Positions 1,000 through 25,071 are shown, counted from the stretch's first letter. The stretch: DNA of 64,000 nt from an uncultured bacterium (GCA_937952215.1 CALFZH010000060.1:194464-258463), one strand, 5' to 3'. A program made the numbers and translations. The notes: generated by a model from the sequence alone, not told the origin.

Positions 1000-1012
1000 C
1001 CGGAGGCCTGCC

Positions 1013-4250: not shown

Positions 4251-4251
4251 C

Positions 4252-9094: not shown

Positions 9095-9321
9095 GGCGCC
9101 TGCCGCGGTCGCCGGCGGATCACGATCCGGAAGTCGCCTTCGAGCCGTTCGACGTGGTGGGTGAACCCGAGGTCGGCGAGAACGTCGTAGAGCGGGAAGG
9201 GCTCGCGACGATGCAGCAGCACCAGTTCGTCGTCGCCGCCGAGTTCGGCGATCGCCTGCAACGCAACCTCGAACGGACCCGGCGGGGCCAGTTCCCGGAC
9301 ATCGATCGTCTTCGTGCACAC
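9091..9321 (-). CDS. DUF2249 domain protein
   Basis: 76 aa. IDVRELAPPGPFEVALQAIAELGGDDELVLLHRREPFPLYDVL fits the DUF2249 pattern. Confidence 0.7.
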   Translation of the reverse strand: MCTKTIDVRELAPPGPFEVALQAIAELGGDDELVLLHRREPFPLYDVLADLGFTHHVERLEGDFRIVIRRRPRQAP

Positions 9322-9322
9322 G

Positions 9323-9778: not shown

Positions 9779-9890
9779 GGGGTCGCTCGGCGGTGGCGTC
9801 GCGATGGCTCGGGCGCGCGGTCGGGCCCCGAGGGCGCGTGCGCCTCCGGAGCAACGTCGGCGCGACATCGGGATTGCACCGCGGTTCCGA

Positions 9891-10904
9891 CTATGGACGT
9901 GGCGGCACCGTGGCCGCGACTCCCGCGTGGCGCCGGCGCATCATCGCACGGGCGCGTGCCGCCTCGGCGGCTTCCCCGGTCGGCAGCAGACCGAGCAGGT
10001 GCAACGCCAGTTCGCGCATGCTGCAGCGGGCGTAGAGGACGTGCAGCGGGACGTCGTGTCCGAGCGTCGAGCGCACTTCCGCGAGCAGGTGGATCGCCTT
10101 CAGCGACGTGCCGCCGGCGTCGAAGAACCGGTCGGTGGCGGTGGCGCGGGATTCGCCGAGCACGCGGTGCAGGATCGCCATCAGGCGAGACTCCAACTCG
10201 GGGACCGCGTGACGGGCGGTGTCGTCGGTCGTCGCCGCGATCGGTTCCGCTGCATGCCGGTCCGGCTCGGCAGCGGTCTGCAGCACCTGGCCCGGTACGC
10301 CGACGATCGTCGCGCCGGCGGGAACGTCGGTGGCTACCAGCGTATTGGCGCCGACCGTGGCTCCGGCACCGATGCGCAGGTCGGGCAGCACCGATGCGTT
10401 GGACCCGACGTAGACCTCGTCCTCGATGGTGACGCGCGCGTTCAACACGGCGCCGGCCGCGATCACGCTGCCAGTGCCGACGCTGGCGCCGTGGCCGACC
10501 ACCGCGCCCATGAACACGACCACGCCATCGGCGAGGCTCGTCTCGGGGGACAGGATTGCCTGCATGTAGACGAGCACGCCCTGGCCGAGCACGCAGTACC
10601 GGGCGTCGACGCCGGGGTGCACGAGCGTCGCGAACGGCACGCCGCTGGCCGCGATGCGCCGGTGCACGGCGGCTCGTCCGGCGGTCTTGCGTGCGACGAG
10701 GTTGACGGCGGAGGAGTCGGCGGGCGCCTCGGCCAGCAATCGCAGTGGACCGACGATCGGAATGCCGAGCAGGGCAGTGCCATGCTTTGTCGGGTCGTCG
10801 TCGAGCAACACGATGCGATCCCACTGGCGTCGCGCTTCATTGCACTCGAGTGCCAGGCGCACGCCCTCGGAGTTGCCGGCCCCGCACAGGTAGAGCGTGC
10901 TCAT
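9891..10904 (-). CDS. NeuD/PglB-type hexapeptide-repeat acyltransferase fused to a C-terminal carrier-protein (PP-binding) domain
   Basis: An internal ATG at 10904 of ORF 9891..11756 overlaps the radical SAM stop. The N-terminus MSTLYLCGAGNSEGVRLALEC is NeuD Rossmann-like. LbH repeats follow (GVVVFMGAVVGHGASVGTGSVIAAGAVLNARVTIEDEVYVGSNASV). The C-terminus carries DRFFDAGGTSLKAIHLLAEV, the phosphopantetheine attachment motif. Confidence 0.7.
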   Translation of the reverse strand: MSTLYLCGAGNSEGVRLALECNEARRQWDRIVLLDDDPTKHGTALLGIPIVGPLRLLAEAPADSSAVNLVARKTAGRAAVHRRIAASGVPFATLVHPGVDARYCVLGQGVLVYMQAILSPETSLADGVVVFMGAVVGHGASVGTGSVIAAGAVLNARVTIEDEVYVGSNASVLPDLRIGAGATVGANTLVATDVPAGATIVGVPGQVLQTAAEPDRHAAEPIAATTDDTARHAVPELESRLMAILHRVLGESRATATDRFFDAGGTSLKAIHLLAEVRSTLGHDVPLHVLYARCSMRELALHLLGLLPTGEAAEAARARAMMRRRHAGVAATVPPRP

Positions 10905-11836
10905 GGCTGGCCAGGGGCGTCGGGAACGGCCGGCCGGATGCGCTCGGCGCTGCCGACCATCCAGTCGCGGCACGTGTGGCAGCGCTTGGGCAGTTCGCGG
11001 AAACGGTGCTGCAGGTGGAGCTCGCGGTAGGCGCCGAGCCGCGCCCACAGGTCGGTGAGCGATTCGTGCCAGGCGTTGCCGACGCCCTCCTCGCCCTCGG
11101 TGTCGCCGGGGCAGCGCGGCACGCGCCCATCCCAGAACACGTGCATCATCGTCACTGCCCACGGGCAGGCGATGCGTTCTTCGTCCGGCACACACAAGGA
11201 CGTGCCAAAGCGCCCGCCCCAACTCAGCATGTGCCGCGCCTTGACGGTGGCGCCGCGCGCATGCCAGTGCGCGCGGAAGGGCTCGAGTTCGCCTTCGTTC
11301 TCCGCCATCGAGATGAACTGCACCATGATCTCGGGGCCCGTGGTGCGCTGCTGTCGCGCCCGCAGCAGGTATTCCACGTTGCCGTAGACCACGTCGCGTT
11401 GCCCGCCGATGCGGATCTTCTCGTAGGTCTCGGGGCGGAAGGCGTCGAGCCCGATGACGAACTGGCTCAGCCCGGCGTCCAGCAGGGCATCGGCGATCGC
11501 GGGCGTCAGCAACATGCCGTTGGTGTTGAGGCACTGGGCCCGCAGCCCGACGGAGCGGCCGTAGGCGAGGCAGCGCAACAGCAGCTCGGGCTGCAGCAGC
11601 GGTTCGCCGCAGAACGAGAACCACACCTGCGTCTCGGGCGCCACCGCCGCCACTTCGTCGGCGCACTTCTGCCAGAGTGCGAACGGCAGCACGCCCTTGG
11701 GCCGCTGCATGGCCGGGTGGTGGCACATCGAGCAGCGCAGGTTGCAGTCGGCGCACAACTCGACCGCAAAGCGCGACGGGAAGGTGATCGGGCGCAAAGT
11801 GCGCTCGACACCAGGCAGATTGGGTTGCGAGAGCAT
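10901..11836 (-). CDS. radical SAM protein with Cys-rich C-terminal (SPASM/twitch-like) region
   Basis: An internal ATG at 11836 of ORF 10901..11971. CADCNLRCSMC is the CxxxCxxC motif. The C-terminus has CPWAV...RCPGD...CHTCRDW. Confidence 0.75.
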   Translation of the reverse strand: MLSQPNLPGVERTLRPITFPSRFAVELCADCNLRCSMCHHPAMQRPKGVLPFALWQKCADEVAAVAPETQVWFSFCGEPLLQPELLLRCLAYGRSVGLRAQCLNTNGMLLTPAIADALLDAGLSQFVIGLDAFRPETYEKIRIGGQRDVVYGNVEYLLRARQQRTTGPEIMVQFISMAENEGELEPFRAHWHARGATVKARHMLSWGGRFGTSLCVPDEERIACPWAVTMMHVFWDGRVPRCPGDTEGEEGVGNAWHESLTDLWARLGAYRELHLQHRFRELPKRCHTCRDWMVGSAERIRPAVPDAPGQP

Positions 11837-12219
11837 CGGGAAATTCCTGGAGAACGGGTCTCCGCCACGTGACTCATCGCGGGGGCGCCGGCCGGAATTG
11901 CACGTCTGCCATGATTGCAGGAAATTTTCGAGACACGCATCGGGTTGCACCAAAGCCACGCATTTGCCCAATCACCCATGCGGCCGATCGCTCGCGTCCG
12001 TCCGGCCAATAGCGACACCGACCCGAATTCGCCGGGTGTCGAAACGGGACGGATCGTTGGCCGGTCCTGGCTCGCGTGCGCGGCGGGATTCGCTGCTGGC
12101 AGGTCGCCGGGCGAGCCGACGGGCTCCGCGAGCGACGCCGTGCTGGCGTGGAGTCCATCGCATCGCGTGGCCAAGACGAACCGGTCGGGGCGCAATCACC
12201 ATCGCGCCGTGACACCGCC

Positions 12220-14475
12220 ATGAAACACGCCTTCGACCCGCTGCTGCCCTTCTGGTGCGTGTTGCTGCTCGCTGCCGCCGCGTGGGCCCAGGTGCCGCGG
12301 CCACCGGCGGCGCTGTATGCGGCCAGCTGCGCTACGTGCCACGGTCAAGATGGGCTCGGTGGCCACCCATCCTGGGTCGAACCGACGCGTGGGGCGCCGC
12401 GCATCGCCTATGGCTTCGCCGCGCCGAACCCCTACTTGGAGAACCTCTTCAAGTTCACGGTCCGGAACGGCAGCTGGTACGGAGCTGGCTTCATGCCGGC
12501 GATGCCGGCGTTCGGCCGCGAGATCCTGAGCGACCAGGAGATGGACGCGCTCGTGCGCTGGCTGCTCTACGCTCCCCCGGTGGGCGGGGCCAACATGCAG
12601 ACCGGCGTGCCGCCGCCGCCGCCGCCCGCGGGCCGCGAGATCGTGCTGGAGATCCTCGACGAGGCGCCCTGGTTCCGCGACGACGGCACCGACCTGGCGG
12701 ACCCGTTCGGCGACCGCCGGCGCGTCGTGCTTGCGCCTGGCGAGTACGTGAAGGTCGTCAACCGCGGCAAGACCTGGCACACGGTCAGCAACCCGGCACT
12801 CGGCGTCGACACCGGCTTCCTCGGTTGGGCGGACAACATCCAGGGCCAGGCAACCGGGTACTGCTACATCGATCCTGCATCGTTGCCGCCCGGCGCCAAC
12901 AAGTACTGGTGCAGCCTGCATCCCTACATGCAGTGCGAGATCGTCAGTCCCGGTGGCGCGGTTGCCGGGCTCACGCGTGTCAGCCGCCGGAGCATCCCCA
13001 GGCCTGGCGTGGCCGGCGTCGGCGAAGTCTGGGTCGGCCTGCAGACGAGGAAGAACCCCGGCGGCCCCGACGGCGCCGTCGAAGTCATCGATGCGGCGAC
13101 CTGGACGACGACCTTGATTCCCGGCGTCGGCAACAACCCGCACAATGGCTGGATCGGTCGTGCGCACGATGGCACAGCGGTGCGCCAGATCGCGGTGTTC
13201 GCGAATTGGCACGACGTCACCGGCACCGTGATCGACGCCGTGACCAAGACCGTGATCGGCAACGTGCCGCTCGGTGCCGCCAACGCGCACGTCATGACGT
13301 CGCCGGGGCTCTCCTATTCGTCGGGGGCGAACCGCTGGTTCGTCACCGTGATGGGCAGCAACAAGGTCGCCGAGATCGATCCGTTCACCGACCTGGCGTT
13401 CGGTCGGGCGACGCTGCCGGCGATGTCGCAAAGCGACGGATCGAACGGCCGGCCTGCGTTCTCTCCGCACGGCCTGTGGTTCCTCGACAACGGCAGCCAC
13501 TTCGTCACCGCCAACACCTACCCTGGGTCGTGTTCGCTGTGGTCGCTGACCCGACCGTGGTCGGATGCCGCAGGCAGGACCGGCATCGGGTGCGAGGTCG
13601 CCAGCAGCGGCACCGGCGGCTCGGCGCCGTTGGCGGCGTCGGTCTTCGGGTCGGTCGCGGGCCCCGGGCAGCCGTTCATCGTCTACACGAACAACGCCGG
13701 CACCCACGACATCAGCGTGTTCCGCGCCGACGCCACGCCCGGCGCCGAGTCGCTCACCAAGGTCGCCGTGCCGGCACCGCTCGGCAACGCCGCCGGCAAC
13801 CTCGCCTTGACCGACATGATGGCGATGCCGGTGCGTTGGGCGCACATGCCGATCCAGTGCGCGGTCAGCCCGCGCAACGGCAACGCGCACCGCCGCTTCA
13901 TGGTCGTCTGCAACAAGGCTTCCATGAACGTCAGCATCGCCGCGCTCGACGCCGGCGGCATGCCGACCGGCATCTACACGTTCCCGGCCGGGCTCGGCTG
14001 CCACGGCGTGACGTTCGGCCTGAAGAAGATGCCTCCCACGGCGCCGGGTCAGTTTCCACGCATCGCCTACCTCGCCTACGTGACCAACACGTTCGAGGAC
14101 TACGTCAGCGTCTACGACCTCGAACTGCTCGAGCAGCTGCTGTTGCTCGATGCCATCGGTCAGGCGCCCGCTGCATTCCAACCCGGTGGCGCCCAAGAGA
14201 CCGTGCTCGTCTCGGGCCATGCGCCGCTGACGTTGCTCGGCGTGCGTGCGATCGTGGTACCGTTGACGCTGTTCAGTCCCGATGCGCGTGGCCTCGTGCA
14301 CGTCGGCGACGTGCCGCTCACCCCGCCCGTGGTCCCGGGCCCGTGGGCCTACTTGCACGAGCATGTCTGGATCGATGTGCCTGGCTTCGGCATGACGCCG
14401 CTGGCGATGGAACTCGGTACGGGCACTGGTGCCATGGGCATCGTCGCGACGCCTCTACCGCCGCCCTGGCGGTGA
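12220..14475 (+). CDS. secreted tri-domain redox protein: class I cytochrome c, cupredoxin (amicyanin-like type 1 Cu site), and YVTN-type beta-propeller
   Basis: ATG at 12220 of ORF 12076..14475, with signal peptide LLLAAAAWAQ. CATCH at aa 37-41 and FMPAMPAF form the heme c site with its Met ligand. WHTV (His187) plus C231-S-L-H-P-Y-M237 match the amicyanin C-T-P-H-P-F-M copper site. The C-terminal ~470 aa has propeller-like repeats including AYVTNTFEDYVSVYD. Confidence 0.7.
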   Translation: MKHAFDPLLPFWCVLLLAAAAWAQVPRPPAALYAASCATCHGQDGLGGHPSWVEPTRGAPRIAYGFAAPNPYLENLFKFTVRNGSWYGAGFMPAMPAFGREILSDQEMDALVRWLLYAPPVGGANMQTGVPPPPPPAGREIVLEILDEAPWFRDDGTDLADPFGDRRRVVLAPGEYVKVVNRGKTWHTVSNPALGVDTGFLGWADNIQGQATGYCYIDPASLPPGANKYWCSLHPYMQCEIVSPGGAVAGLTRVSRRSIPRPGVAGVGEVWVGLQTRKNPGGPDGAVEVIDAATWTTTLIPGVGNNPHNGWIGRAHDGTAVRQIAVFANWHDVTGTVIDAVTKTVIGNVPLGAANAHVMTSPGLSYSSGANRWFVTVMGSNKVAEIDPFTDLAFGRATLPAMSQSDGSNGRPAFSPHGLWFLDNGSHFVTANTYPGSCSLWSLTRPWSDAAGRTGIGCEVASSGTGGSAPLAASVFGSVAGPGQPFIVYTNNAGTHDISVFRADATPGAESLTKVAVPAPLGNAAGNLALTDMMAMPVRWAHMPIQCAVSPRNGNAHRRFMVVCNKASMNVSIAALDAGGMPTGIYTFPAGLGCHGVTFGLKKMPPTAPGQFPRIAYLAYVTNTFEDYVSVYDLELLEQLLLLDAIGQAPAAFQPGGAQETVLVSGHAPLTLLGVRAIVVPLTLFSPDARGLVHVGDVPLTPPVVPGPWAYLHEHVWIDVPGFGMTPLAMELGTGTGAMGIVATPLPPPWR

Positions 14476-14478
14476 GTC

Positions 14479-15501
14479 GTGCCGCCCGGAGACGCGGCGT
14501 GTGCGCTGTGCGGCGGCGCGATGCGTCGCTGGTTGCAGGTTCCGTGTGATTGGCGGCGGCCCGGTCTGGCCGGCGCATGGAATCTGTGGTGGTGCGATGC
14601 CTGCGCCTTCGGCCAGGTCTGGCCGCGGCCGGCGCCGAGCGAGATCCCGGCCTTCTATGACCTGCGGCGGTACTACACGCATTCGACCGCCGAAACCGGT
14701 CGCGTCGAGGCGAGGCCGGGTTGGTCGGCGCGGCTGCTGATGGCGCTCGCCTGGCGGGCGGACCGGGGGGCGGAACCCGATGACAGCTGGTGGCACCAGC
14801 TGCCGCCGGTGGGGGCGCGGACGGCGTTGGAGATCGGTTGTGGTTCGGGTCAGAACCTGAAGCTGCTGGCGGCGCAAGGGCTCGAGGTCGTGGGCGTGGA
14901 ACCCGACGTTGCCGCCTGCGCGGCGGCGCGCGGGCGTGGCCTGCAGGTGTGGGCCGGTGTGGCCGAAGCGCTCCCCGCTCCGATTGTCGCGCGGCACTTC
15001 GACCTCGTGCTGCTCGCGCACGTGCTCGAACACTGCCTCGATCCGGCCGGTGCTCTGGGGCAGGCGGCGGCGCGCGTGGCGCCCGGCGGGCGCCTCGTCG
15101 TCGAAGTGCCGAACAGTGCGTGTGCGGGCCTGGCCTCGGCAGGGGCGGCCTGGCATTGGCTCGACGTGCCGCGGCATCTCAACTTCTTCACCCGCGCCAG
15201 CCTCGAGGCGCTGGTGCGGCGCATCGGCCTGGTCGTGGAGCGCGTGGAGTGGTGGGGCTATGCACGCCAGTTCCATCCCGAGTGGATCGCGACCGAGGCC
15301 GAGGCCGAGGCGGTGTTCGCCGGCCTGGCAGCGGCGGATGCCGGGCGGGTGGCGCGGCACCGGCGGCGCGCCTGGCGCCTGCTGGCGCGCACGCTGTTTG
15401 CTCACGCCGCGCGGCGCTACGACTCGCTGCGGCTGATCCTGCGCGCGGGCCAGCGTGCTGCCGTGGGGTCGGTGATGCGGCGACTTTCGACTCGCGACTG
15501 A
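14479..15501 (+). CDS. class I SAM-dependent methyltransferase with N-terminal Cys4 zinc-ribbon
   Basis: GTG start 4 nt after the upstream stop. It has CALCGG...CDAC and LEIGCGSGQNL (motif I), then GGRLVVEVPN. Confidence 0.7.
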   Translation: MPPGDAACALCGGAMRRWLQVPCDWRRPGLAGAWNLWWCDACAFGQVWPRPAPSEIPAFYDLRRYYTHSTAETGRVEARPGWSARLLMALAWRADRGAEPDDSWWHQLPPVGARTALEIGCGSGQNLKLLAAQGLEVVGVEPDVAACAAARGRGLQVWAGVAEALPAPIVARHFDLVLLAHVLEHCLDPAGALGQAAARVAPGGRLVVEVPNSACAGLASAGAAWHWLDVPRHLNFFTRASLEALVRRIGLVVERVEWWGYARQFHPEWIATEAEAEAVFAGLAAADAGRVARHRRRAWRLLARTLFAHAARRYDSLRLILRAGQRAAVGSVMRRLSTRD

Positions 15502-15593
15502 AAACCCGGTCGTGAGCCGGCGTTGCTCGGCGTGACGGTGGTGGTCCGCCCTCGGGCCGGGCTGCGCATCCGTGACTCGCTGGAGCGCCCTGC

Positions 15594-18500
15594 ATGAGCC
15601 ACCTCGCGCCTTCGGGTTCGTCTTCGTCCGCCCTGGATCGTCGCGGGTTCCTCGCCTTGATGATGACCGCCGGCGCTGGCTCGACCACGCTGGCGCAGTC
15701 CGCGGCGACGATGTCCGGCTTGCTCGATCCGGTGCAGATCGACAATCCGCTGGCGAAGTACCCCAATCGCGGGTGGGAGAAGGTCTACCGCGACCTCTAC
15801 CACTTCGACTCCAAGTTCACGTTCCTGTGCGCGCCGAACGACACGCACAACTGCCTGCTGCACGGGTTCGTCAAGAACGGCGTCGTGACGCGGATCGCGC
15901 CCACCTACGCGTTCCACGAAGCCAAGGACCTCGATGGCACACCGGCCAGCCGCCGCTGGGAACCGCGCTGCTGCCAGAAGGGGCTGTCGCTGGTGCGTCG
16001 GTTCTACGGCGATCGCCGGGTCCGTGGACCGATGGTGCGGCAGGGTTTCCTGCAGTGGGCGAAGGCCGGGTTCCCGCGCGATGGGACCACCGGCGCCGTC
16101 GACCCGAAGTACCTGAATCGCGGGCGTGAACCGTTCGTGAAGGTGAGCTGGGACGAGGCCAACGAACTGACCGCGCGCGTGCTGCTCGACATCGCGACCA
16201 CGTACTCCGGCGAGCAAGGGCAGCAGCGACTGCGGGCGCAGGGCTACGACGACGCGATGGTCGAGGCGACCAAGGGTGCCGGCACGCAGGTGCTGAAGAT
16301 GCGCGGCGGCATGCCTGCGCTCGGCTTCACGCGCATCATGGGGCTCTACCGCTTCGCCAACCAACTGGCGCTGCTCGACGAGAAGATCCGCAAGGTCGAC
16401 GCCGACCATGCGATGGGGAGCCGGTGTTGGGACAGCTACGCGTGGCACACCGACCTGCCGCCGGGCCACCCGATGGTGACCGGCCACCAGACCAACGACT
16501 TCGATCTGTGCAACGTCGAGCACGCGAAGCTGGTGCTGGTGTGGGGCATGAACTGGATCACGACCAAGATGCCCGACAGCCACTGGCTGACCGAGGCGCG
16601 GATGAAGGGCACTCGCGTCGTGGTCATCGCCTGCGAGTACAGCGCCACCGCGAGCAAGGGCGACGACGTGCTGATCGTGCGCCCCGGCACGACGCCGGCA
16701 CTGGCGCTCGGGTTCGCCCAGGTGATCCTCGCCGAGAAGCTCTACGACGAGCAGTTCGTGCGGCGCTTCACCGACCTGCCGCTGCTGGTGCGGCTGGACA
16801 CCGGCGAGAGGCTGCGCGCCGCCGACGTGTTCCCGGGCTACCAGAACGCCGAGCTGAAGAACCACATCGAGGTGCTGGCCGCGGGCGCGAAGCCGCCGAA
16901 AGCGCACCTGCAGGATCGGGAGTACGTCACGGCCGAGCAGCGTGCGGCCTGGGGCGACGCCGTGGGTTGGGACGCGGCGAAGAAGCAACCGGTCGCGATC
17001 ACCCGCGACATGATCGGCGTGCACGCCGATGCGCTGCCCGACGGCCTCGGGCTCGAGGTCGACGTCGAGGTGACGCTGGCCGATGGCAAGACGGTGCGCT
17101 GCCAGAGCGTGTTCACCGCCACGAAGCAACTGCTCGACGACAGCTACACGCCCGCGCAGGTGTCGAAGCTGACCTGGGCGCCCGAGGACGCGATTCGCGA
17201 AGTGGCGCGCGCGATCGCTGCGAGCCGCGGCGAGACCCTGTTCGCGATGGGCATGGGGCCGAACCAGTTCTTCAACAACGACCTCAAGGACCGCGCCGTG
17301 TTCCTGGTCGCGGCGCTGACGGGCAGCGTCGGGCGCATCGGCGGCAACGTCGGCAGCTTCGCCGGCAACTACCGCTCGGCGTGGGCGTCCGGCATCCCGA
17401 CGTTCACCACCGAGAACCCGTTCGACATCGAACTCGACCCCGCCAAGGCGCCGCGCACCCGCGTGTTCTACAAGGGCGAGAGCGCCCACTTCTGGAACAA
17501 CGGCGATCGCCCGCTGCGCTACGGCAAGGCCCTGCTCACCGGCAAGTCCCACGTGCCGACGCCGACCAAGTGCGTCGTGGTGAGCAACGGCAACTCGCTG
17601 ATCGGCAACGCCAAGTGGCACTACGACCTCGTCGTCAACACCCTGCCGAAGACCGAGTTCATCGGCGTCGCCGATTGGTGGTGGACGGGATCGTGCGAGT
17701 ACGCGGACATCGTGTACGCGGTGGACTCGTGGGCCGAGATGAAGGTGCCGGATGTCACGATCTCGGTGACCAATCCGTTCCTCTACACCTATCCGCCGAC
17801 GCCGTTGCCGCGCATCCACGATTCGCGGCACGACGCCGAGGTCATCGCCGGCATCGCCTCGGCGCTGGCGAAGCTGACGGGCGACCAGCGCCACGTCGAC
17901 ATGTGGCGGTTCGTGCCGGACGGCGGCATGCGGCCGTATCTGCAGCGCATCCTCGACCACTCGGCGGACATGCGCGGCTTCCGGATCGAGAATCTCGAGG
18001 CGGATGCGCGGCGCGGCGTGCCGGCGTTGGTGCAGACGCGCACGTATCCGGTGTGGAGTTCGTACGAATCCGTGCACGACAGCGTGCCGTGGTTCACCAA
18101 GACCGGCCGCCTCGAGTTCTACCGCGAGGAACGCGAGTTCCGCGACGCTGGCGAGAACCTGGTGATCCACCGCGAGCCGATCGACGCGACGTTCCACGAG
18201 CCGGCGGTGCTGATCGCCGACAAGCCGTCGCCGTTGCTGCGGCCGAAGACGCCGCAGGACTACGGCGCCGACGCGGCGGACCTGAGCCCCGACGCCCGCA
18301 TGGGGCGCACCGTGGTCCGCACGGTCGATGAACTGATCGCGAGCAAGCACCCGCTGGCGAAGGACGGGTTCCGGTTCATCTTCCACACGCCGAAGTACCG
18401 CCACGGCGCCCACACCACGCCGGTCGATCTCGACATCCTGGCCGCCTGGTTCGGGCCGTTCGGCGACGCGCGTCGCCACGACAAACGCTCGCCGTTCGTC

Positions 18501-19091
18501 GGCGAGGGCTACGTCGACATCAACCCGCTCGACGCCAAGGAACTCGGCATCGAGGACGGCGACTACGTGTGGATCGACGCCGATCCGACCGATCGGCCGT
18601 ATCGCGGCGCCAAACAGAACTCCGAACCGATGGGGTTCTCGCGGCTGATGAGCCGAGCGCGCTACTACCCAGGCACGCCGCGGGGCATCACGCGCATGTG
18701 GTACAACATGTATGGCGCGTCGTGGGGCAGCGTGCAGGGCCAGAAGACGCGGCCCGACGGGCTCGCCAAGTCGCCGCTCACCGGCTACCAGGGCATGTAT
18801 CGCTGCGGCAGCCACCAGAGCGCGACGCGCGCCTGGCTCAAGCCGACCTGGCTCACCGACTCGCTGGTCGCCAAGAACATGTTCGGCCGCCAGATCGGCC
18901 AGGGCTTCCAGCTCGACATCCATGGCGCCACCGGTGCCCCGCGCGAATCGTTCGTGCGCATCGCCAAGGCCGAGCACGGCGGTCTGGGCGGCAAGGGGCT
19001 GTGGCGTGGTGCTGCGCTGGGACTGCGTCCCACCTACGCCACCGAAGCGATGCAGAAGCACATCGACGGCGCCTACGTGAAGAAGGCCTGA
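15594..19091 (+). CDS. type II DMSO-reductase-family molybdopterin oxidoreductase, alpha subunit (Nar/Nxr-like), Tat-exported
   Basis: 1165 aa with twin-arginine signal [18 protein letters not shown]. The N-terminal FS0 motif C79-APN-D83-THN-C87...EPRCC aligns to NarG H-x3-C-x3-C...[18 protein letters not shown] aligns to NarG TRTPDAHFFTE, the Asp Mo ligand. Confidence 0.85.
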
Positions 19092-19126
19092 TCCCACCTC
19101 TCCAACGACAGCACAGGACCACGACC

Positions 19127-20257
19127 ATGGCTCGCGTCGAGAACCGGCAGATCGGCCGCCAGATGGACTACCCGTACGAAGCGCCGCCGCCCGAACGGCA
19201 AGTGGCCTACGTCTTCGACATCAACAAGTGCATCTCGTGCCAGACGTGCACGGTCGCCTGCAAGACGGCGTGGACGGCTGGCAAGGGCCAGGAGACGACG
19301 TTCTTCAACAACGTCGAGACCAAGCCGTGGGGCGGGTATCCGCTGGGTTGGGACGCGCGACTGCAGGAGAAGCACGGCGTCGCCGCGTGGGAAGGCGGCA
19401 AGCTGGCCTCGAAGACGGTGTTCGAGAACCTGGCGCCGGGGCAGCCGCCGCTGGGCCATCGTCCCACCGAGCCCGACTATGCGAGTCCCAACATCAGCGA
19501 AGACGACGTCGGCGGGGGCATGGCGGAAGGGGGCGCCTTCTTCTCGGGCCTGCACCCGATGTGGATGTTCTACCTCGCGCGGATCTGCAATCACTGCACG
19601 CTCCCGGCGTGTGTCGCGGCGTGCCCGCGCAAGGCCGTCTACAAGCGGCCCGAGGACGGCATCGTGCTCGTCGACCAGCAGCGGTGCCGCGGCTACCAGG
19701 AGTGCATCAAGGCCTGCCCCTACAAGAAGATCTTCTACAACATCATCGGCCGGGCCAGCGAGAAGTGCATCGGCTGCTATCCACGCGTCGAACAGGGCGA
19801 GGTGGCGCTGTGCGTCGAATCGTGCATCGGCAAGATCCGCATGCACGGGTTCCTGTCGACCAAGCAGCCGCCGCGCCAGGACAACCCGCTCGACTACCTG
19901 GTGCACTTCCGCAAGATCGCGCTGCCGCTGTATCCGCAGTTCGGGACGAGTCCGAACGTGTACTACATCCCGCCGGTGCACGTGCCCGACGCGTATCTCG
20001 AGCAGTTGTTCGGGCCGGGAGTCGATGCGGCGAAGGACCTCTACCGCAATCTGGCCAAGGACCGCGAGCTGCTGGGTTGCATGCTGCTCTTCGGATCCAG
20101 CAATCGGATCCTCACCCGCTTCGCGGTCACCGACCGCGAGGCGATCGGCTGGGACGTCGACGGCAAGGAAGTGACGCGCGTCCCCTTCACCGAGTCCACG
20201 TTCGTTCGCGAGGTGCACGATGTCCGACATGACGCCTTCCGCACCAACAGCCCCTGA
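19127..20257 (+). CDS. type II DMSO-reductase-family beta subunit (NarH-like four-cluster ferredoxin)
   Basis: ATG at 19127 of ORF 18569..20257. The cluster motifs are CISCQTCTVACK, CNHCTLPACVAACP, CRGYQECIKACP and CIGCYPRVEQGEVALCVESC. Confidence 0.85.
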   Translation: MARVENRQIGRQMDYPYEAPPPERQVAYVFDINKCISCQTCTVACKTAWTAGKGQETTFFNNVETKPWGGYPLGWDARLQEKHGVAAWEGGKLASKTVFENLAPGQPPLGHRPTEPDYASPNISEDDVGGGMAEGGAFFSGLHPMWMFYLARICNHCTLPACVAACPRKAVYKRPEDGIVLVDQQRCRGYQECIKACPYKKIFYNIIGRASEKCIGCYPRVEQGEVALCVESCIGKIRMHGFLSTKQPPRQDNPLDYLVHFRKIALPLYPQFGTSPNVYYIPPVHVPDAYLEQLFGPGVDAAKDLYRNLAKDRELLGCMLLFGSSNRILTRFAVTDREAIGWDVDGKEVTRVPFTESTFVREVHDVRHDAFRTNSP

Positions 20258-21224
20258 TCCCGGCCCTGGCGAAGCGCGGTGCCCACGCGGCCTCGCGACC
20301 CTGTTGATCGCCCTGATCGTCTCGCCAGTGCTCGTGGTCGCACTCGCACTGGGCATTCGTTGGTGGCAGACGCCGCCGGCAGTCCGCTCGTCGCTGCAGG
20401 GCGAGGGCGGGGTTCCCGACGACGCGGGCACGGCAGTGCCGACCATCGCCGTGCTGAAGATCGGCAGTGCCCTCGGCGCCCCCGATCCGGCCGCCTCCTT
20501 CTGGGCCGACGCCGTGCGCATGGATGTGATGATGATGCCGCAGAACATGACGATGCCGATGGTCGACACGCCCGGCGCCGAGGTGCTGGCGGTGGCGGCG
20601 GCGACCGACGGCGTCGATCTTGCCTGGCGGATCGAATGGGCGGACGCGACCCAGGACGCCACACCCGACGTCGACCGGTTCGGGGATGCGGTGGCGATCC
20701 AGTTCCCGCTGACGGAGGCCGCCTCGCCGATGATGGGCCTGGGCGGCAAGGTGCACATCCTGCATTGGAAGGCGATCTGGCAGACGGACATCGAGCAGGG
20801 GTTCCAGGACGATGGCGTGACGCATCCCAACACGTTCCATGCGCTCGCGTGGTTCGCGACGAGTGACGACCTGGCGACCGGCTACACCGACGAACGCTCG
20901 CGCGTGTGGCTGACCCATCACAGCGCCGGCAATCCGATGTCGAACTTCAGCCGCGAACAACCGGTGGAGGAGACCTTCGCCGCCGGGTTCGGCACGCTGA
21001 CGAGCCGCTCGTTGTCGCTCACGAAGGCCCGCGGTCGTTGGGCCGACGGACGGTGGTCCGTCGTGATCCAGCGTCCGCTCGCGCCTGCCGACGATCCGGA
21101 GGGATTCCGGCTCGCCGCCGGCGGCAAGAGCATGGTGTCGTTCGCCGTCTGGGGCGGATCGCTGGGGCACGTCGGCGGCCGCAAGATGTGGGCGAACTGG
21201 GTTCCGTTCGAAGTGCCGCGCTGA
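20220..21224 (+). CDS. type II DMSO-reductase-family gamma subunit (EB_dh/heme b domain) with N-terminal membrane anchor
   Basis: 334 aa with hydrophobic segment LATLLIALIVSPVLVVALALGI. This is followed by ...AWRIEWADATQD...DAVAIQFPL...GKVHILHWKAIWQ, as in the EbdC/DdhC/NxrC family. The start overlaps the beta 3' end, so the start choice is uncertain. Confidence 0.65.
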   Translation: MSDMTPSAPTAPDPGPGEARCPRGLATLLIALIVSPVLVVALALGIRWWQTPPAVRSSLQGEGGVPDDAGTAVPTIAVLKIGSALGAPDPAASFWADAVRMDVMMMPQNMTMPMVDTPGAEVLAVAAATDGVDLAWRIEWADATQDATPDVDRFGDAVAIQFPLTEAASPMMGLGGKVHILHWKAIWQTDIEQGFQDDGVTHPNTFHALAWFATSDDLATGYTDERSRVWLTHHSAGNPMSNFSREQPVEETFAAGFGTLTSRSLSLTKARGRWADGRWSVVIQRPLAPADDPEGFRLAAGGKSMVSFAVWGGSLGHVGGRKMWANWVPFEVPR

Positions 21225-21269
21225 AGTCTCGGGCCGCCCCTGACGCGGCCCTCGTCGAGGAGATCCCCG

Positions 21270-22001
21270 ATGTCCAAGCTCGCCGATCCGCTGCAACTGG
21301 TCGCGCAAACCGACCTGCTGTTGCTGTTCTCCAGACTGTGCGCGCGACCCACTGCCACACCCTTGGCCCACGTGCCGACGGCCGCTGCAGACCTCGCGAC
21401 CGTCGTGCGGTTGGCCGGGCTCGCGGAAGAAGCCCTGCCGGCGTTCACCGCCGCACTCGCGGCCGCCAGCAGCTTCGACCCCGTGGCCTGGCACTGTGAC
21501 TACGAGACCACGTTCGGCCCGAACACGGTCTGTCCGGTCTACGAAGCCGCCTGGGTTCGGCGCGAACGCGGGCCGTTGATGGCGGACATCGCCGGCTTCG
21601 CCAACGCATTCGGTCTGCAACTGCGGTCGGCCAGCGGCGAACGCTACGACCATCTGGCGGCCGAACTGGAGATCGTGGCGCTGATCCAGTTGATGCGGGC
21701 GTTGGCGCTGCAGCGCGGCGATGTCGAATCGGCGGCGATCGCCGAAGACGCCGTCGACCGCTTCGTCGCGGACCATCTCGGCGACTGGTTGCCGGGCTTC
21801 TGCGCCGCCCTGGCGCGACTCGAACCGCATCCGATCTGGTCGCCGTTGGCGGCGGCATTGGCGTCGTTCTGGGATCGCTGCTGCGCGTTGCACGGCTGGA
21901 CCCTGCAAGCGGTGATCGCCCCGCGCAACGTGCCGCCGGGCGAACGCGAGGCCGACGAACCAGCCTGTGGGATGTCGGGAGCTTGCGCCGTGGAGGCCTG
22001 A
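21270..22001 (+). CDS. TorD/NarJ-like molybdoenzyme maturation chaperone (delta subunit)
   Basis: 243 aa. YETTFGPNTVCPVYEAAW...DHLAAELEIVALIQLM...FVADHLGDWLPGF is a TorD-family pattern, and the position after alpha-beta-gamma fits. Confidence 0.7.
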   Translation: MSKLADPLQLVAQTDLLLLFSRLCARPTATPLAHVPTAAADLATVVRLAGLAEEALPAFTAALAAASSFDPVAWHCDYETTFGPNTVCPVYEAAWVRRERGPLMADIAGFANAFGLQLRSASGERYDHLAAELEIVALIQLMRALALQRGDVESAAIAEDAVDRFVADHLGDWLPGFCAALARLEPHPIWSPLAAALASFWDRCCALHGWTLQAVIAPRNVPPGEREADEPACGMSGACAVEA

Positions 22002-22066
22002 ACCGCGCCGCGCGTGCCCGCGCGCCCGTCCCGCCCACTCGTGGATCCATCGGCCCGTCCGACGCA

Positions 22067-23467
22067 ATGAAGACCATCATCGAGCCGTTCCGGATCAAGT
22101 CCGTCGAGCCGTTCCGCCTCACCACGCGCTCGCAGCGCGAGGCCGCGCTGCGGGACGCGCACCACAACCTGTTCTTGCTGCGGGCCGAGGACGTGATGAT
22201 CGACCTGCTCACCGACTCCGGCACCGGCGCGATGAGCGCTCGGCAATGGGCGGCGCTGATGACGGGTGACGAGAGCTACGCCGGCTGCAGTTCGTTCTAT
22301 GAACTGGAACAGGTGGTGCGCGACCTCACCGGCTATCGCCATGTGTTCCCGGTGCACCAGGGCCGCGCCGCCGAGCGGATCCTGTTCACACTCCTCGTCG
22401 ATCGCACCAAGGCGGTCCCGAACAACTCGCACTTCGACACCACGCGCGCCAACATCGAGTACCTCGGCGGCAGCGCCCATGACTTCCCCGTGCCGCAGGC
22501 CCGCGACCTCGGCCGGCCAGCACCGTTCAAGGGCGACATGGACCTCGACGCCCTGCGCGCGTTCCTCGACGCCGCCACGCCCGGCAGCGTGCCGCTCGGC
22601 ATGATGACGATCACGAACAACCGGATGGGCGGTCAGCCGGTGTCGCTGCAGAACCTGCGTGCCGTGGCCGCCGAGTACCACGGGCGCGGCATTCCGTTCT
22701 TCCTCGACGCGGCGCGCTTCGCCGAGAACGCGTGGCTGGTCCGGCAGCGCGAGGCAGGCCAGCAGCACCGGCCGCTGCGCGACATCGTGCGCGAAGTCTT
22801 CGAGCTGGCCGACGGCTGTCTGATCTCGGCCAAGAAGGACGGGCTGGTGAACATCGGCGGCATCCTGGCCCTCGACGACGATGCGCTGGCAGAACGTGCG
22901 CGCGAGTTGCTGATCCTGACCGAGGGCTTTCCGACCTACGGTGGTCTCGCCGGCCGCGATCTGGCGGCGCTGGCGCAAGGCCTGCGCGAGGTGCTGGACG
23001 AGAACTACCTGGCGTATCGCGAGGCGAGCGCGCGGTACCTGGCGGACGCGCTCGATCGGCTCGGCGTGCCGACCGTGCGGCCCTGCGGGCTGCACGCCGT
23101 CTACATCGACGCGCGGGCGATGCTGCCGCACATCCCGCCGTCGGAGCTTCCGGGGCAGGCGTTGTGCTGCGAGCTGTACCGCGTCGGCGGCATCCGGGCC
23201 GTGGAGATCGGCACGCTGATGTTCGGACGTACCGACCCGCGGACCGGGGCTGCCGTGCCTGCCGAGGCCGACCTCGTGCGGCTGTGTCTGCCGCGGCGGG
23301 TCTACACCCAGAGCCACGTCGACTGGGTAGTGGAGGCGTTCGCGGAGGTGATGGCCGGCCGCGAACGGCTGCGCGGGCTGCGGATCACGCACGAGCCGCG
23401 CTTCCTGCGCGCCTTCACCGCGCGGCTTGCGCCATTGGCCTGCGGCACGCCGGAGCCGGCGTCGTGA
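22067..23467 (+). CDS. tnaA: tryptophanase-like PLP beta-eliminating lyase
   Basis: ATG at 22067 of ORF 21983..23467. Matches include MKTIIEPFRIKSVEP, DLLTDSGTGAMS and SAKKDGLVNIGG (PLP Lys). Several stretches agree with E. coli TnaA rather than tyrosine phenol-lyase: FDTTRA, ARFAENAW, EGFPTYGGL and LPHIPPSELPGQALCCELYRVGGIRAVEIG. Confidence 0.8.
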   Translation: MKTIIEPFRIKSVEPFRLTTRSQREAALRDAHHNLFLLRAEDVMIDLLTDSGTGAMSARQWAALMTGDESYAGCSSFYELEQVVRDLTGYRHVFPVHQGRAAERILFTLLVDRTKAVPNNSHFDTTRANIEYLGGSAHDFPVPQARDLGRPAPFKGDMDLDALRAFLDAATPGSVPLGMMTITNNRMGGQPVSLQNLRAVAAEYHGRGIPFFLDAARFAENAWLVRQREAGQQHRPLRDIVREVFELADGCLISAKKDGLVNIGGILALDDDALAERARELLILTEGFPTYGGLAGRDLAALAQGLREVLDENYLAYREASARYLADALDRLGVPTVRPCGLHAVYIDARAMLPHIPPSELPGQALCCELYRVGGIRAVEIGTLMFGRTDPRTGAAVPAEADLVRLCLPRRVYTQSHVDWVVEAFAEVMAGRERLRGLRITHEPRFLRAFTARLAPLACGTPEPAS

Positions 23468-25071
23468 ACGCGGCGGCCGGCGCCCCGCCGCGGGACTACG
23501 GTCGCTGGCGTGCCCTCGTACTCATCCTGGTCCATGTGCTGATCGGTCTGCACATCGCCCACTGGCTCGTCGCCGGTCGCACGCTGGCGCCGCTCGAGTT
23601 CAACGAGGTGATGCACACCCTGGAACTGGGCCTGGTCACCGCGGGGTTCCTGTTGATGGCGACGGCCGTTCTGGCCACGGCGGTGTTCGGGCGCTTCTTC
23701 TGCGGCTGGGCGTGCCACGTGTTGGCGTTGCAGGACCTCTGCGTCTGGCTGCTGAAACGCGCCGGCATCGCCGCCAAGCCCGTGCGCTCGCGCGCGCTGC
23801 GCGTGGCGCCCTTCGTCGTCATGGGCTACATGTTCGTGTGGCCGCAGTTGGTCCGCTGGTGGCACGGGGATCCGCTGCCAGCGCTGCACATCGCCGGCAC
23901 CGAGCAGGCGTGGGCGTCGCTGGTGACGAACGACTTCTGGCGCAACCTGCCCGGACCGTGGATCGGGTCGCTGACGCTGGCGACGTGCGGCTTCGCGGTC
24001 GTCTACCTGCTCGGCTCGCGCGCCTTCTGCTTCGCGGGCTGTCCGTACGGCGCGGTCTTCGCCTTGGCCAGCCGGCTCGCGCCCGGCAGCATCCGCCTGC
24101 GCGGCGCGTGCAACGACTGTGGGCGCTGCACTGCGGCGTGCCAGTCGGGCATCTGGGTGCACGAGGAAGTGCGGCGGTTCGGGCAGATCGTCGACTCGAG
24201 GTGCCTGCGCGACCTGGACTGCGTCGCGGCGTGCCCGGAAGGGGCGCTGGCGTTCGGCCTCGGACGTCCCGCGGGATTGCGTTCGCTGGAGCGCGGCGGC
24301 AGCCGCCGGCCGCCGAACACCTGGACCTGGTTCGAGGACGTGCTGGCGGGCGCCACGATGCTGGCCGGCGTGCTGGTGTATCGAGGCCTCTACGGCGAAG
24401 TCCCGTTCCTGATGGCCGTCGGCATCGGCGCCTGCCTCGCCTGCCTCGCGGTGATGGCGCGACGCATGCTGGCGGGCGAGGACGTGCGGCTGCGCGGCCT
24501 GGAATTGGCGCGGTCCGGACGCCGCACCGGCATCGGCTGGATCGTCATCGCGTTGCTCGGTGCGGTCGCGGCGTTCACGGCGCATTCCGCAGTCGTTCGC
24601 TGGCACGAAGCCGCGGGGCTGGCGGCCTTCGAACGTGTGCGCGCGACTCTCGCCAGCGGCGGCAACCCGCGCGACGACCTGGCGGCGGCCCTGGACGCGC
24701 ACGATGTGGTGGAGCGTTGGGGGCTGAGCAACCCCGTCGACCACAGCCGTCGCCTCGCTTCGCTGCACGCATGGTCCGGTGCGCCGACCCGCGCCGAGCC
24801 GCACCTGCGCGGGGTGTTGGCCCACGCCGCTTCGGATCACGAAGCGCGCATGCGACTCGCCGCGGTTCTTGCCGGTGCCGGTCGGACGGCGGAGAGCCTG
24901 GCGGAACTGCGCGAGTTGGCGCTGGCACACCGTCGCGAAGCACTGGCCGAGGGAGTCCGGGTCGGTGCGGTGCGCGTTGCCGAACGGCTGTCGATGATGG
25001 CGCAGCAACGGGGGTCGGCCGCCGACCACGAGGCGGCGCTCGCCGTGATCGGCGAGTTGGGCGCCCGCTGA
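23464..25071 (+). CDS. membrane polyferredoxin (NapH/MauN-like 4Fe-4S protein) with C-terminal TPR-like helical region
   Basis: A GTG at 23464 overlaps the tnaA stop (GTGA). It has transmembrane segments, FFCGWACHVLALQD and FCFAGCPYGAVF (NapH-type CxxC), and two ferredoxin motifs, CNDCGRCTAACQSG and CLRDLDCVAACPEG. Confidence 0.7.
   Translation: MNAAAGAPPRDYGRWRALVLILVHVLIGLHIAHWLVAGRTLAPLEFNEVMHTLELGLVTAGFLLMATAVLATAVFGRFFCGWACHVLALQDLCVWLLKRAGIAAKPVRSRALRVAPFVVMGYMFVWPQLVRWWHGDPLPALHIAGTEQAWASLVTNDFWRNLPGPWIGSLTLATCGFAVVYLLGSRAFCFAGCPYGAVFALASRLAPGSIRLRGACNDCGRCTAACQSGIWVHEEVRRFGQIVDSRCLRDLDCVAACPEGALAFGLGRPAGLRSLERGGSRRPPNTWTWFEDVLAGATMLAGVLVYRGLYGEVPFLMAVGIGACLACLAVMARRMLAGEDVRLRGLELARSGRRTGIGWIVIALLGAVAAFTAHSAVVRWHEAAGLAAFERVRATLASGGNPRDDLAAALDAHDVVERWGLSNPVDHSRRLASLHAWSGAPTRAEPHLRGVLAHAASDHEARMRLAAVLAGAGRTAESLAELRELALAHRREALAEGVRVGAVRVAERLSMMAQQRGSAADHEAALAVIGELGAR

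Follow-up and report, generated by a model that had tools for sequence, protein, structure and literature searches.

A basal Nitrotoga-type periplasmic nitrite oxidoreductase/nitrate reductase gene cluster and an apparent haem-copper/polyferredoxin gene pair in an uncultured bacterium

We analysed a stretch of 64,000 nt of DNA from an uncultured bacterium (GCA_937952215.1 CALFZH010000060.1:194464-258463), hereafter the window, to which all positions refer. Eight tightly packed plus-strand genes, g1 to g8, occupy positions 12220-25071, and the four genes in their middle (alpha, beta, gamma and delta, 15594-22001) are predicted to encode a periplasmic molybdoenzyme of the nitrite oxidoreductase (NXR) and nitrate reductase (NAR) type. 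Our best explanation of the locus, to which we give a probability of about 60%, is that this core interconverts nitrate and nitrite, probably working as a nitrate reductase, and that g1 and g8 form a separate gene pair that is a candidate redox link for the enzyme.

Results

The molybdoenzyme core

The alpha subunit matches NxrA of Kuenenia stuttgartiensis (PDB 7B04_B) with an E-value of 1.5e-248 over residues 14-1163. PcrA, NarG and EbdA are much weaker matches in the same PDB search, with E-values of 1e-49 to 1e-37 and partial coverage. Identity to the Kuenenia NxrA sequence, which was rebuilt from two HMMER alignments, is 38.6%. The subunit has 1165 residues, compared with 1148 in Kuenenia NxrA, and carries a twin-arginine translocation (Tat) signal with the motif DRRGFL at its N-terminus. 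Together with the Asp ligand of the Mo atom, these features agree with an earlier note on this DNA, which had assigned alpha to the periplasmic NxrA/NarG class.

The roles of the active-site residues are known from the Kuenenia enzyme (Chicano et al. 2021, PMC8387239). The defining site has an Fe-S cluster, FS0, that is held by three Cys and one Asp (C-x2-N-D-x3-C ... C), with an Asn at the substrate position (PMC8387239). In our alignment, the FS0 ligands C79, D83, C87, and C127 of the window alpha correspond to Kuenenia C67, D71, C75, and C115, the substrate residue Asn82 corresponds to N70 (Ile in EbdA), and the Mo ligand Asp287 corresponds to D275. The segment Y282-x4-D287 aligns with Kuenenia Y270/D275 and is kept in all 40 sampled members of the clade and in all outgroups examined. 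The FS0 with three Cys and one Asp is common to the same 40 members and to both periplasmic NXR lineages, whereas Cys or His replaces the Asp in the outgroup type II representatives.

The other three subunits follow the same pattern. Beta contains 16 Cys in four groups, matches NCBIfam DMSO_red_II_bet at 2.4e-80, and is 51-73% identical to the beta genes of 80 related loci. Gamma matches Pfam EB_dh at 1.6e-23, and its best PDB match is NxrC of the Kuenenia complex (7B04_C). Met172 and Lys322 of gamma lie at the positions of M155 and K305, the haem b ligands of Kuenenia NxrC (PMC8387239). Hydropathy analysis gives gamma one long N-terminal hydrophobic segment, residues 21-50, which looks like a membrane anchor helix, and gamma has no quinol-binding dihaem module. 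Delta matches Pfam Nitrate_red_del (1e-10) and NCBIfam DMSO_red_II_cha (3.2e-11). For the four subunits, the top NCBIfam models are DMSO_red_II_alp, _bet, _gam, and _cha, with scores under the subfamily cut-offs; the EbdA model gives alpha 152 bits, against a cut-off of 2000. Judged by these residues and matches, the core would form a complete NXR/NAR-type complex in the periplasm, and all its cofactor sites are intact. Its NXR-type residues and its relationship to NxrA make nitrate or nitrite the expected substrate, which was also the first candidate of the earlier note.

Placement of the alpha subunit

Periplasmic enzymes of this kind fall into two lineages: the Nitrospira/Nitrospina/anammox clade, and a sister clade that contains the Nitrotoga NXR and the Hydrogenobacter periplasmic NAR and that has been termed 'mostly uncharacterised proteins' (PMC6050957). 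A survey of 97,227 genomes counted 665 sequences of the Nitrospira/anammox clade and 581 of the Nitrotoga clade (PMC12823411). The window alpha and its 120 best database matches are all 37-41% identical to Kuenenia NxrA, which agrees with the ~40% published for Kuenenia against Nitrotoga and Hydrogenobaculum NxrA (PMC8387239). N-terminal fragments of Nitrotoga and Hydrogenobaculum NxrA (~280-300 residues) are 50-51% identical to the window alpha and 39-43% identical to Kuenenia NxrA. These fragments, the only part of the supplement that we used, were read by optical character recognition (OCR) from the supplementary alignment of Chicano et al., and the reading is error-prone and unreliable past ~270 columns. 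The diagnostic motifs of alpha, including YPNRxWEKVYRD, follow the Nitrotoga type.

A search of 5.8e9 proteins returned no alpha relative between 99% and 66% identity. A collection with one genome per species holds at least 578 alpha relatives, and the best of them, at 57-64% identity, come from Thioploca, 'Ca. Parabeggiatoa', Thiomargarita, many Planctomycetota, Bacteroidota, Acidobacteriota, and others. Neighbour-joining analysis puts the window alpha at the base of a core subclade formed by these relatives, with a median identity of 62.5% to the core members, compared with 68.8% within the core. A representative with 51% identity branches next, followed by the Kuenenia-type branch (Kuenenia and the database sequence P0163). 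Identity to other type II families is 26-30%, measured on unnamed representatives whose assignment to the ethylbenzene dehydrogenase (EBDH), Ser, Clr, and Pcr types comes from motifs of the FS0 region only. These comparisons place the enzyme in the Nitrotoga-type sister clade, as a basal and divergent member of that clade's large uncharacterised subclade. The earlier note had called for a phylogeny of alpha; in our tree, alpha lies outside any characterised orthologous group, and its aligned active-site residues show no departure from NXR/NAR. The core is a new basal member of a known clade, not a new system.

These data bear on whether the enzyme acts on another substrate, either by reducing chlorate, perchlorate, or selenate or by anaerobically hydroxylating an aromatic or indole-derived compound linked to the lyase gene g7 and to benzoyl-CoA genes upstream. 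A tryptophanase-family gene does lie in the cluster, genes resembling those of benzoyl-CoA reductase (BCR) do lie upstream, and the enzyme's own subclade is known from sequence alone. We nevertheless consider such a substrate very improbable, as all defining site residues of Kuenenia NXR are kept, including the Asn that is Ile in EbdA. The 26-30% identity to the EBDH/Ser/Clr/Pcr stand-ins contrasts with 39% to Kuenenia and ~50% to the N-terminal Nitrotoga and Hydrogenobaculum fragments. The lyase is not syntenic in any relative, and the relatives are flanked by Rrf2 regulators and cytochromes, not by hydrocarbon-degradation genes. The anaerobic hydroxylase that the earlier note had offered as a second candidate finds no support in the kept Asn82, the FS0 with three Cys and one Asp, or the identity values.

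Layout of the gene cluster

The features of the cluster and its surroundings are collected in Table 1. The gaps between successive genes from g1 to g8 are 3, 92, 35, -38, 45, 65, and -4 nt. The earlier note had described a nine-gene operon; the genes are co-directional and tightly spaced over the span it gave, but they number eight, both in the sequence and in the note's own list. The G+C content of the window is ~70%, so mechanical lists of open reading frames (ORFs) are full of shadow frames. The GC content by codon position picks a single frame for each cluster gene, the same as the called one, and an independent gene caller returned the same genes on public contigs with identical sequence. 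Searches of Pfam, NCBIfam, and PDB back every domain assignment of the cluster genes, in agreement with the calls made earlier from the sequence. Two independent metagenome assemblies from sludge bioreactors (L001 and L002) contain all eight genes in this arrangement at 100% identity, which rules out an assembly chimera; L003 and L004 are shorter contigs that hold only part of it.

Table 1 Features of the gene cluster and of the surrounding window
Feature	Position	Strand	Description
Enoyl-CoA hydratases (two)	1-999, 944-1789	+	
HGD-D family proteins (two)	within 1330-2949 and 2064-4250	+	
BcrAD/BadFG ATPases (two)	4222-5568 and ~5594-6431	+	
Short-chain dehydrogenase/reductase (SDR)	6428-7150	+	
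NnrS-like membrane protein	7772-9094	-	Pfam match under cut-off
DUF2249	9091-9321	-	Pfam
Hemerythrin	9323-9778	-	Pfam
Hexapeptide-transferase fused to phosphopantetheine-binding (acyl carrier protein, ACP) domain	9891-10904	-	
Radical S-adenosylmethionine (SAM)/SPASM	10901-11836	-	divergent from g1
Intergenic region	11837-12219	.	383 bp between divergent radical SAM gene and g1
g1	12220-14475	+	751 aa; cytochrome c, cupredoxin, propeller
g2	14479-15501	+	Zn-ribbon SAM methyltransferase (class I, Methyltransf_23)
alpha (NxrA/NarG-like)	15594-19091	+	Tat-exported molybdopterin subunit, 1165 aa
beta (NxrB/NarH-like)	19127-20257	+	four Fe-S cluster subunit, 376 aa
gamma (NxrC-like)	20220-21224	+	EB_dh haem b subunit
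delta	21270-22001	+	NarJ/TorD-family assembly chaperone
g7	22067-23467	+	pyridoxal phosphate-dependent beta-eliminating lyase, tryptophanase / tyrosine phenol-lyase (TPL) family, 466 aa
g8	23464-25071	+	NapH/MauN-like membrane polyferredoxin with TPR-like tail, 535 aa

A scan of the plus strand inside the cluster, which gives weak evidence, found no terminator-like site, and a search of Rfam, including the molybdenum cofactor (Moco) riboswitch, matched no family. Co-transcription of the eight genes is plausible. The intergenic region upstream of g1 presumably holds a promoter or regulatory region; a consensus scan found no sigma-70-like site in it, although the consensus is of doubtful value for this host. 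We also asked whether the block from g2 to g7 was inserted recently, and found no flanking repeats longer than 9 nt and uniform GC and GC3.

Gene neighbourhoods in related loci

To examine synteny, all eight proteins were compared by tblastn with the 80 related loci, each with up to 10 kb of flanking sequence. A match to beta comes after alpha in 72 loci, one to gamma in 64, and one to delta (at E <= 1e-5) in 47, and most loci without a beta, gamma, or delta match end soon after alpha. g1, g2, and g7 were found in none of the 80 loci, and g8 had a match in a single one, L036, from a metagenome-assembled genome of Singulisphaera. The partners are instead Rrf2 regulators (30 loci), cytochromes c (22), Rieske proteins (20), and COX3-cytochrome c fusions (15), as counted by clustering of the neighbours, with Rrf2 annotated by eye from one representative sequence; Moco biosynthesis genes are also among the neighbours. 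The genes flanking the cluster (hemerythrin, DUF2249, NnrS-like, radical SAM, FGE, and SulP) show essentially no synteny in these loci, with weak hemerythrin matches in three. Because alpha has no near relatives between 99% and 66%, the synteny of the accessory genes was probed instead from the homologues of g1 and g2.

By this comparison, g1, g2, g7, and g8 are not a conserved accessory set for the enzyme, and the accessory combination looks unique to this lineage and mostly a positional mosaic. The earlier note had treated all eight genes as one dedicated system and had said that a lack of synteny of the flanking genes in relatives would refute it. Only alpha, beta, gamma, and delta are syntenic in relatives; g1, g2, and g7 are not, and g8 is nearly as isolated. 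The note's statement that this combination is not a described system holds.

The nearest relative of alpha (66% identity; L085/L086, 1-9615) lies beside genes for a NapA/NapB-like nitrate reductase, a cytochrome/4Fe-4S/NrfD membrane complex, and an anaerobic ribonucleotide reductase. That genome has two periplasmic nitrate-type molybdoenzymes side by side.

Recurrence of g1 and g8

A g8-like gene directly adjoins g1 in four other contigs, L087, L089 (of which L096 is the same contig), L090, and L093, a point that is absent from the earlier claims about this DNA. The adjoining g8-like genes are 45-49% identical to g8 in L087, L089, and L090, and in L093 the gene is recognised by Pfam only; with the homologue in L036 included, the range is 42-49%. 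In the closest case (L087, 75% identity), g8 starts 92 nt after g1, and in the window the 9-kb block from g2 to g7 separates the two. A g1 homologue in L091 lies 6 kb from an NXR-type cluster whose alpha is 61% identical to Kuenenia NxrA and thus belongs to the other periplasmic clade (Nitrospira/anammox). Relatives of g1 are therefore found near NXR-type clusters twice, in the window and in L091, in two different NXR clades. In L036, the g8-like gene is located inside a cluster of NXR, COX3-cytochrome c, multihaem, and Rrf2 genes. These observations suggest that g1 and g8 are a separate, rare but recurrent gene pair, and it looks as if the NXR cassette, g2, and g7 lie between its two members in the window.

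Several of these contigs have further features. The NXR cluster of L091 (47-5468, on a contig with 67% GC) is of the Nitrospira/anammox type, has a gamma fused to two cytochrome c domains (544 aa), and contains a small ORF of 104 aa between alpha and beta. In L089 (3014-13574, a Planctomycetes contig), the g8-like/g1 pair comes after a 699-aa multihaem protein (cytochrome c554-like) and an FG-GAP/UnbV_ASPIC (CRTAC1-like) protein, a combination that resembles the gene clusters of hydrazine-synthase homologues (PMC12758564). A GAF-sigma-54 activator and a ScdA/hemerythrin gene lie upstream of the L089 pair, and a radical SAM gene follows g1. In L093, a gene resembling flavin-dependent tryptophan halogenases (12398-14119) directly follows g1. 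Unrelated tryptophan-family enzymes thus stand beside g1 or g8 in L093 and in the window, where g7 overlaps the start of g8; this may be a coincidence.

Features of the g1 and g8 proteins

g1 has a Sec signal and is predicted to be secreted, with three domains. The first is a class I cytochrome c domain with the motif CATCH at residues 37-41 (Pfam). The second contains a set of type 1 copper ligands, H187 and C231-x2-H234-x2-M237, which has amicyanin-like spacing and is invariant in an alignment of 31 sequences. The third is a YVTN/YncE-like propeller, 7-bladed-like, in which the same alignment shows H308, H357, and H417 to be invariant and H331, H557, and H595 to be nearly so. A profile of the g1 family matches class I cytochromes c, amicyanin (E ~0.01), the cupredoxin of NirK (1e-4), and a YVTN propeller in PDB. 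The AlphaFold 2 model of g1 has a predicted local distance difference test score (pLDDT) of 90.9, and the region of the middle domain is all-beta in it. The ligand set and the model together predict that the middle domain is an amicyanin-like type 1 copper cupredoxin that binds Cu.

All that Foldseek found with the g1 model were generic propellers (YVTN, cd1 NirS, hydrazine synthase beta, YncE, and lactonases), with a template-modelling (TM) score normalised to the target of at most 0.66. We considered three known protein types for g1 and rejected each. NirS is a generic match of propeller and cytochrome c only (TM 0.28-0.47, 13-15% identity), with no Pfam or NCBIfam match; NosZ is absent from the top 50 Foldseek matches and likewise has no Pfam or NCBIfam match; and a methylamine-dehydrogenase-like protein has no specific support from sequence or fold. 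The g1 family is rare, with 38 matches in 5.8e9 proteins, mostly from Planctomycetota and Fimbriimonadales/Armatimonadota.

Among the more distant homologues, a multicopper oxidase of ~800 aa lies directly before g1 in L105, L106, L107 (3081-5483), L111, and L112, where g1 is 34-41% identical. Two weak database matches of g1, P0156 and P0157, are fusions of a multicopper oxidase with a propeller. There are hints here that the g1 family is part of copper oxidoreductase biology and not specific to nitrogen oxides.

g8 matches Pfam Fer4_5, Fer4_9, and TPR_19. It has ~4 transmembrane helices with the motifs CX3CH (residue 80) and CX3CP (residue 189), followed by one canonical 4Fe-4S motif, CxxCxxCxxxC (residue 216), one non-canonical motif, ~3 more transmembrane helices, and a TPR-like domain at the C-terminus. 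NCBIfam NapH matches at 7e-12, and the scores of the NapH/MauN-type models are 45 and 43 bits, against cut-offs of 234 and 213. A PDB sequence search with g8 found generic 2x[4Fe-4S] motifs only. On these scores, g8 looks like a relative of the NapH/MauN polyferredoxins rather than a member of that group.

The g2 and g7 genes

g2 has an N-terminal zinc ribbon (CxxC...CxxC), and Pfam and NCBIfam identify it as a class I SAM methyltransferase (Methyltransf_23); the GTG start at 14479 is required to include the first CxxC. Its closest homologue (78%) is flanked by hemE and by histidine biosynthesis genes, and neither NXR nor g1 lies near it. g2 therefore looks like a housekeeping-type methyltransferase and a passenger in the cluster.

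g7 scores 642 bits with the NCBIfam 'tryptophanase' subfamily NF009709 (cut-off 285) and misses both equivalog models, TnaA with 483 against 825.8 and TPL with 487 against 720.7. In the PDB comparison, it resembles solved tryptophanases and TPLs to the same degree. The residues that we take to set tryptophanase specificity are Asp137, Ile396, and His463 in E. coli numbering. g7 has the Asp (FDTT) and the Ile (VEIG) as in tryptophanase, and has Ala at the position of E. coli TnaA His463. g7 is probably also a passenger gene; the analysis revealed nothing that ties g2 or g7 to the enzyme.

Genes outside the cluster

The genes at 1-7150 form a set that resembles class I BCR or 2-hydroxyacyl-CoA dehydratase, and they bear out the aromatic-degradation context that the earlier note had described and favour an anaerobic way of life. 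Class I BCR-like sets are typical of facultative anaerobes. ARAGORN reports a 94-nt tRNA-Ala(GGC) at 5690-5783 (minus strand) inside the BcrAD-family coding region, which is probably a false positive by its length and location. The divergent hemerythrin/DUF2249/NnrS-like module, which the note had cited as typical of N-oxide loci, is present, with an NnrS match under the Pfam cut-off. The radical SAM and hexapeptide-transferase/ACP genes (9891-11836) are not syntenic with NXR or g1 elsewhere. The divergent genes at 7772-11836 may or may not be functionally part of the cluster.

Downstream of the cluster, long ORFs of 548, 571, 239, 764, 556, and 802 aa at 28360-32239, 45072-49587, and 55249-57657 have a good coding signal and no Pfam match. 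The gene content around them, which includes an extracytoplasmic function (ECF) sigma factor fused to CarboxypepD_reg (37618-40218, minus strand) and a Ser/Thr kinase with TPR repeats (52353-55538, minus strand), is reminiscent of Planctomycetota. Taken with the taxonomic labels of g1 and g2 homologues, the general gene content makes Planctomycetota a tentative guess for the host.

Discussion

Proposed mechanism

In our favoured reading, alpha would be exported by the Tat pathway and would carry molybdenum bis(molybdopterin guanine dinucleotide) and FS0. Beta would carry four Fe-S clusters, and gamma would hold haem b by Met and Lys and be fixed by its single N-terminal anchor helix. The enzyme would interconvert nitrate and nitrite at the outer surface of the membrane. 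The enzyme needs a partner, since gamma contains a single haem b and lacks a module for binding quinol. In the cluster and in those window ORFs that were scanned with Pfam, no c-type cytochrome besides g1 and no NapH-like candidate quinol-interacting membrane protein besides g8 was found. This makes a chain through both proteins the simplest model: electrons would pass from quinol to the Fe-S clusters of g8, to haem c and type 1 Cu of g1, to haem b of NxrC, to the Fe-S clusters of NxrB, and to Mo, and would take the reverse path in nitrite oxidation. We give this chain, in either direction, only about one chance in three. Instead of this role, or in addition to it, the His-rich propeller of g1 may be a catalytic site for a nitrogen oxide.

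Direction of the reaction

Nitrate reduction in a probably facultatively anaerobic heterotroph would be the likelier direction. The context that points to it includes the two HGD-D, two BcrAD, enoyl-CoA hydratase, and SDR genes upstream, and the nearest alpha relative, which lies beside Nap and anaerobic ribonucleotide reductase genes. In Beggiatoaceae, the enzyme from the same subclade is regarded as a dissimilatory nitrate reductase (PMC6052272).

The enzyme could also be a physiological nitrite oxidoreductase like that of Nitrotoga, with electrons passing through NxrC haem b to haem c and blue Cu of g1 and then to an acceptor, possibly the propeller site of g1. We regard this as possible but rather unlikely. 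The sister clade is shared with the Nitrotoga NXR, a g1 homologue lies near the Nitrospira/anammox-type NXR of L091, and g1 has cytochrome c and type 1 Cu domains, which are typically high-potential acceptors. Ligation of haem b by Met and Lys is said to give a high potential, and Kuenenia NXR catalyses both directions (PMC8387239). The window, however, contains no terminal oxidase or CO2-fixation genes, the neighbouring genes are of an anaerobic heterotroph type with O2-sensitive BCR-like enzymes, and the subclade is hosted mostly by heterotrophs or by nitrate-respiring sulfur bacteria.

Coupling of g1 and g8 to the enzyme

The cluster could alternatively be a positional mosaic without functional coupling, in which nxrABCD, g1/g8, the methyltransferase, and the lyase are four unrelated units and the partners of the NXR are encoded elsewhere. 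It would fit the missing NXR synteny of g1, g2, and g7 in the 80 loci, the housekeeping context of the closest g2 homologue, the absence of an NXR near most g1 homologues, and the Rieske/cytochrome b, cytochrome c, or COX3-cytochrome c partners that the relatives use. On the other side, g1 is found near NXR-type clusters in 2 of ~11 closer contexts and in two clades, while NXR-type genes occur at ~1 per 100 genomes (1,246 sequences in 97,227 genomes), and a g8-like gene lies within the NXR/cytochrome cluster of L036. The spacings of 3 nt and -4 nt, the scan that found no internal terminators, and the lack of another candidate redox partner among the window ORFs scanned with Pfam also speak against a pure mosaic. 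We take this possibility seriously, but we lean away from it.

Returning to an NXR/NAR core with g1/g8 as a candidate redox link, several points weigh against it. Four of the nine other closer contexts of g1 (L088, L094, L095, and the P0132 contig) have neither g8 nor NXR within 10 kb, and the flanks of 21 further metagenome loci of g1, mostly distant relatives (33-44%), have neither. Most g1 homologues, including those in all of the ~18 distant contexts, are thus without either gene within 10 kb. Distant g1 homologues are instead preceded by a multicopper oxidase in one subgroup or followed by a SurA-like chaperone in another. The reading leaves g2 and g7 without a role, although spacings of 3 nt and -4 nt suggest that they are co-translated with g1 and g8. 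A direct path from g8 to g1 is speculative, since NapH-type proteins normally have their Fe-S domain in the cytoplasm. The activity of the enzyme and its direction are read from sequence and context, and the phylogeny has as named references one PDB sequence and the error-prone OCR fragments. Since the wider clade includes Nitrotoga, which oxidises nitrite, as well as Hydrogenobacter, which reduces nitrate (PMC6050957), and since Kuenenia NXR runs in both directions (PMC8387239), phylogeny cannot settle the direction.

A bolder view is that g1 and g8 are a previously unrecognised periplasmic haem/copper redox system tied to NXR-type enzymes, in which g1 would be a new nitrite- or NO-transforming enzyme or a new terminal electron sink or source for periplasmic NXRs, and that the NXR cassette was captured into a self-contained respiratory module. 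We think this unlikely. Such a system could be analogous to NosZ/NosR, with unrelated fold detail.

Comparison with known systems

The closest structural counterpart, Kuenenia NXR-ABC (PDB 7B04, PMC8387239), shares with the predicted enzyme the Tat signal, the FS0 with three Cys and one Asp, the substrate Asn, the Mo Asp, a four-cluster beta, an EB_dh gamma with Met/Lys ligation, and a periplasmic-type compartment. It differs in that the alphas are only 39% identical and belong to sister clades, and in that the window gamma has an N-terminal hydrophobic anchor. The 15-gene cluster of Kuenenia also has NXR-T and many cytochrome genes, which the window cluster lacks, and Kuenenia is an anammox host, unlike the host of the window.

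The NXR of 'Candidatus Nitrotoga fabula' and the NAR of Hydrogenobacter/Hydrogenobaculum (Kitzinger et al. 2018, PMC6050957) share the sister clade, the motif YPNRxWEKVYRD, and the order nxrA-B-C-chaperone. Identity to them is ~50% in the N-terminal third only, and the window enzyme belongs to the Beggiatoaceae/Planctomycetota-type subclade. Nitrotoga NxrC is without a transmembrane helix, whereas the window gamma has its hydrophobic N-terminal segment. The physiological direction is known for the Nitrotoga and Hydrogenobacter enzymes, whereas we infer it for the window enzyme.

The NxrA/NarG proteins of Beggiatoaceae, Planctomycetota, Bacteroidota, and Acidobacteriota (Thioploca, 'Ca. Parabeggiatoa', Stieleria sedimenti) are closer, with 57-66% identity in alpha, 51-73% in beta, and the same alpha-beta-gamma-delta order. 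Their neighbours are Rrf2, Rieske, cytochromes c, COX3-cytochrome c fusions, and Moco genes, without g1, g2, and g7. EBDH and the Ser/Clr/Pcr/Ddh enzymes share the family, the subunit architecture, the EB_dh gamma with Met/Lys haem, and a TorD-like chaperone. They differ by 26-30% identity in alpha, by an alpha ~200 aa shorter than that of the window, by an FS0 of the His/Cys type, and, for EbdA, by Ile where the window has Asn.

The polyferredoxins NapH/MauN and NosR/NosH serve periplasmic Nap, methylamine dehydrogenase/amicyanin, and N2O reductase. g8 shares with them the Fer4_5 core, the CX3C[PH] motifs, and two ferredoxin-type Cys motifs, and it stands beside the secreted, predicted copper/haem protein g1, as NosR does with NosZ and MauN with amicyanin. 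Unlike the NapH/NosR types, g8 scores only 45 of the 234 bits required and bears a TPR-like tail and additional transmembrane helices. It is not accompanied by NapG/NapC, a flavin mononucleotide (FMN)-binding domain, or NosZ, and g1 is not NosZ-like by fold search.

Significance

Nitrotoga-type periplasmic NXR/NAR enzymes are encoded in hundreds of genomes, and only two of them have functional data, so metagenomic counts of 'nxrA' do not tell nitrite oxidation from nitrate reduction. With this locus, the clade gains a basal, divergent member, whose electron-transfer neighbours are unlike those of all 80 relatives examined. It also reveals a rare conserved protein with predicted haem c, blue-copper, and propeller domains, apparently paired with a NapH-like polyferredoxin and found beside two NXR clades. 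If the pair is not a redox partner, the locus would be one more uncharacterised operon for a periplasmic NXR/NAR with passenger genes. If it is the redox partner of the enzyme, or a linked nitrogen-oxide enzyme, it would offer a handle on how soluble or singly anchored complexes of this type are linked to the respiratory chain.

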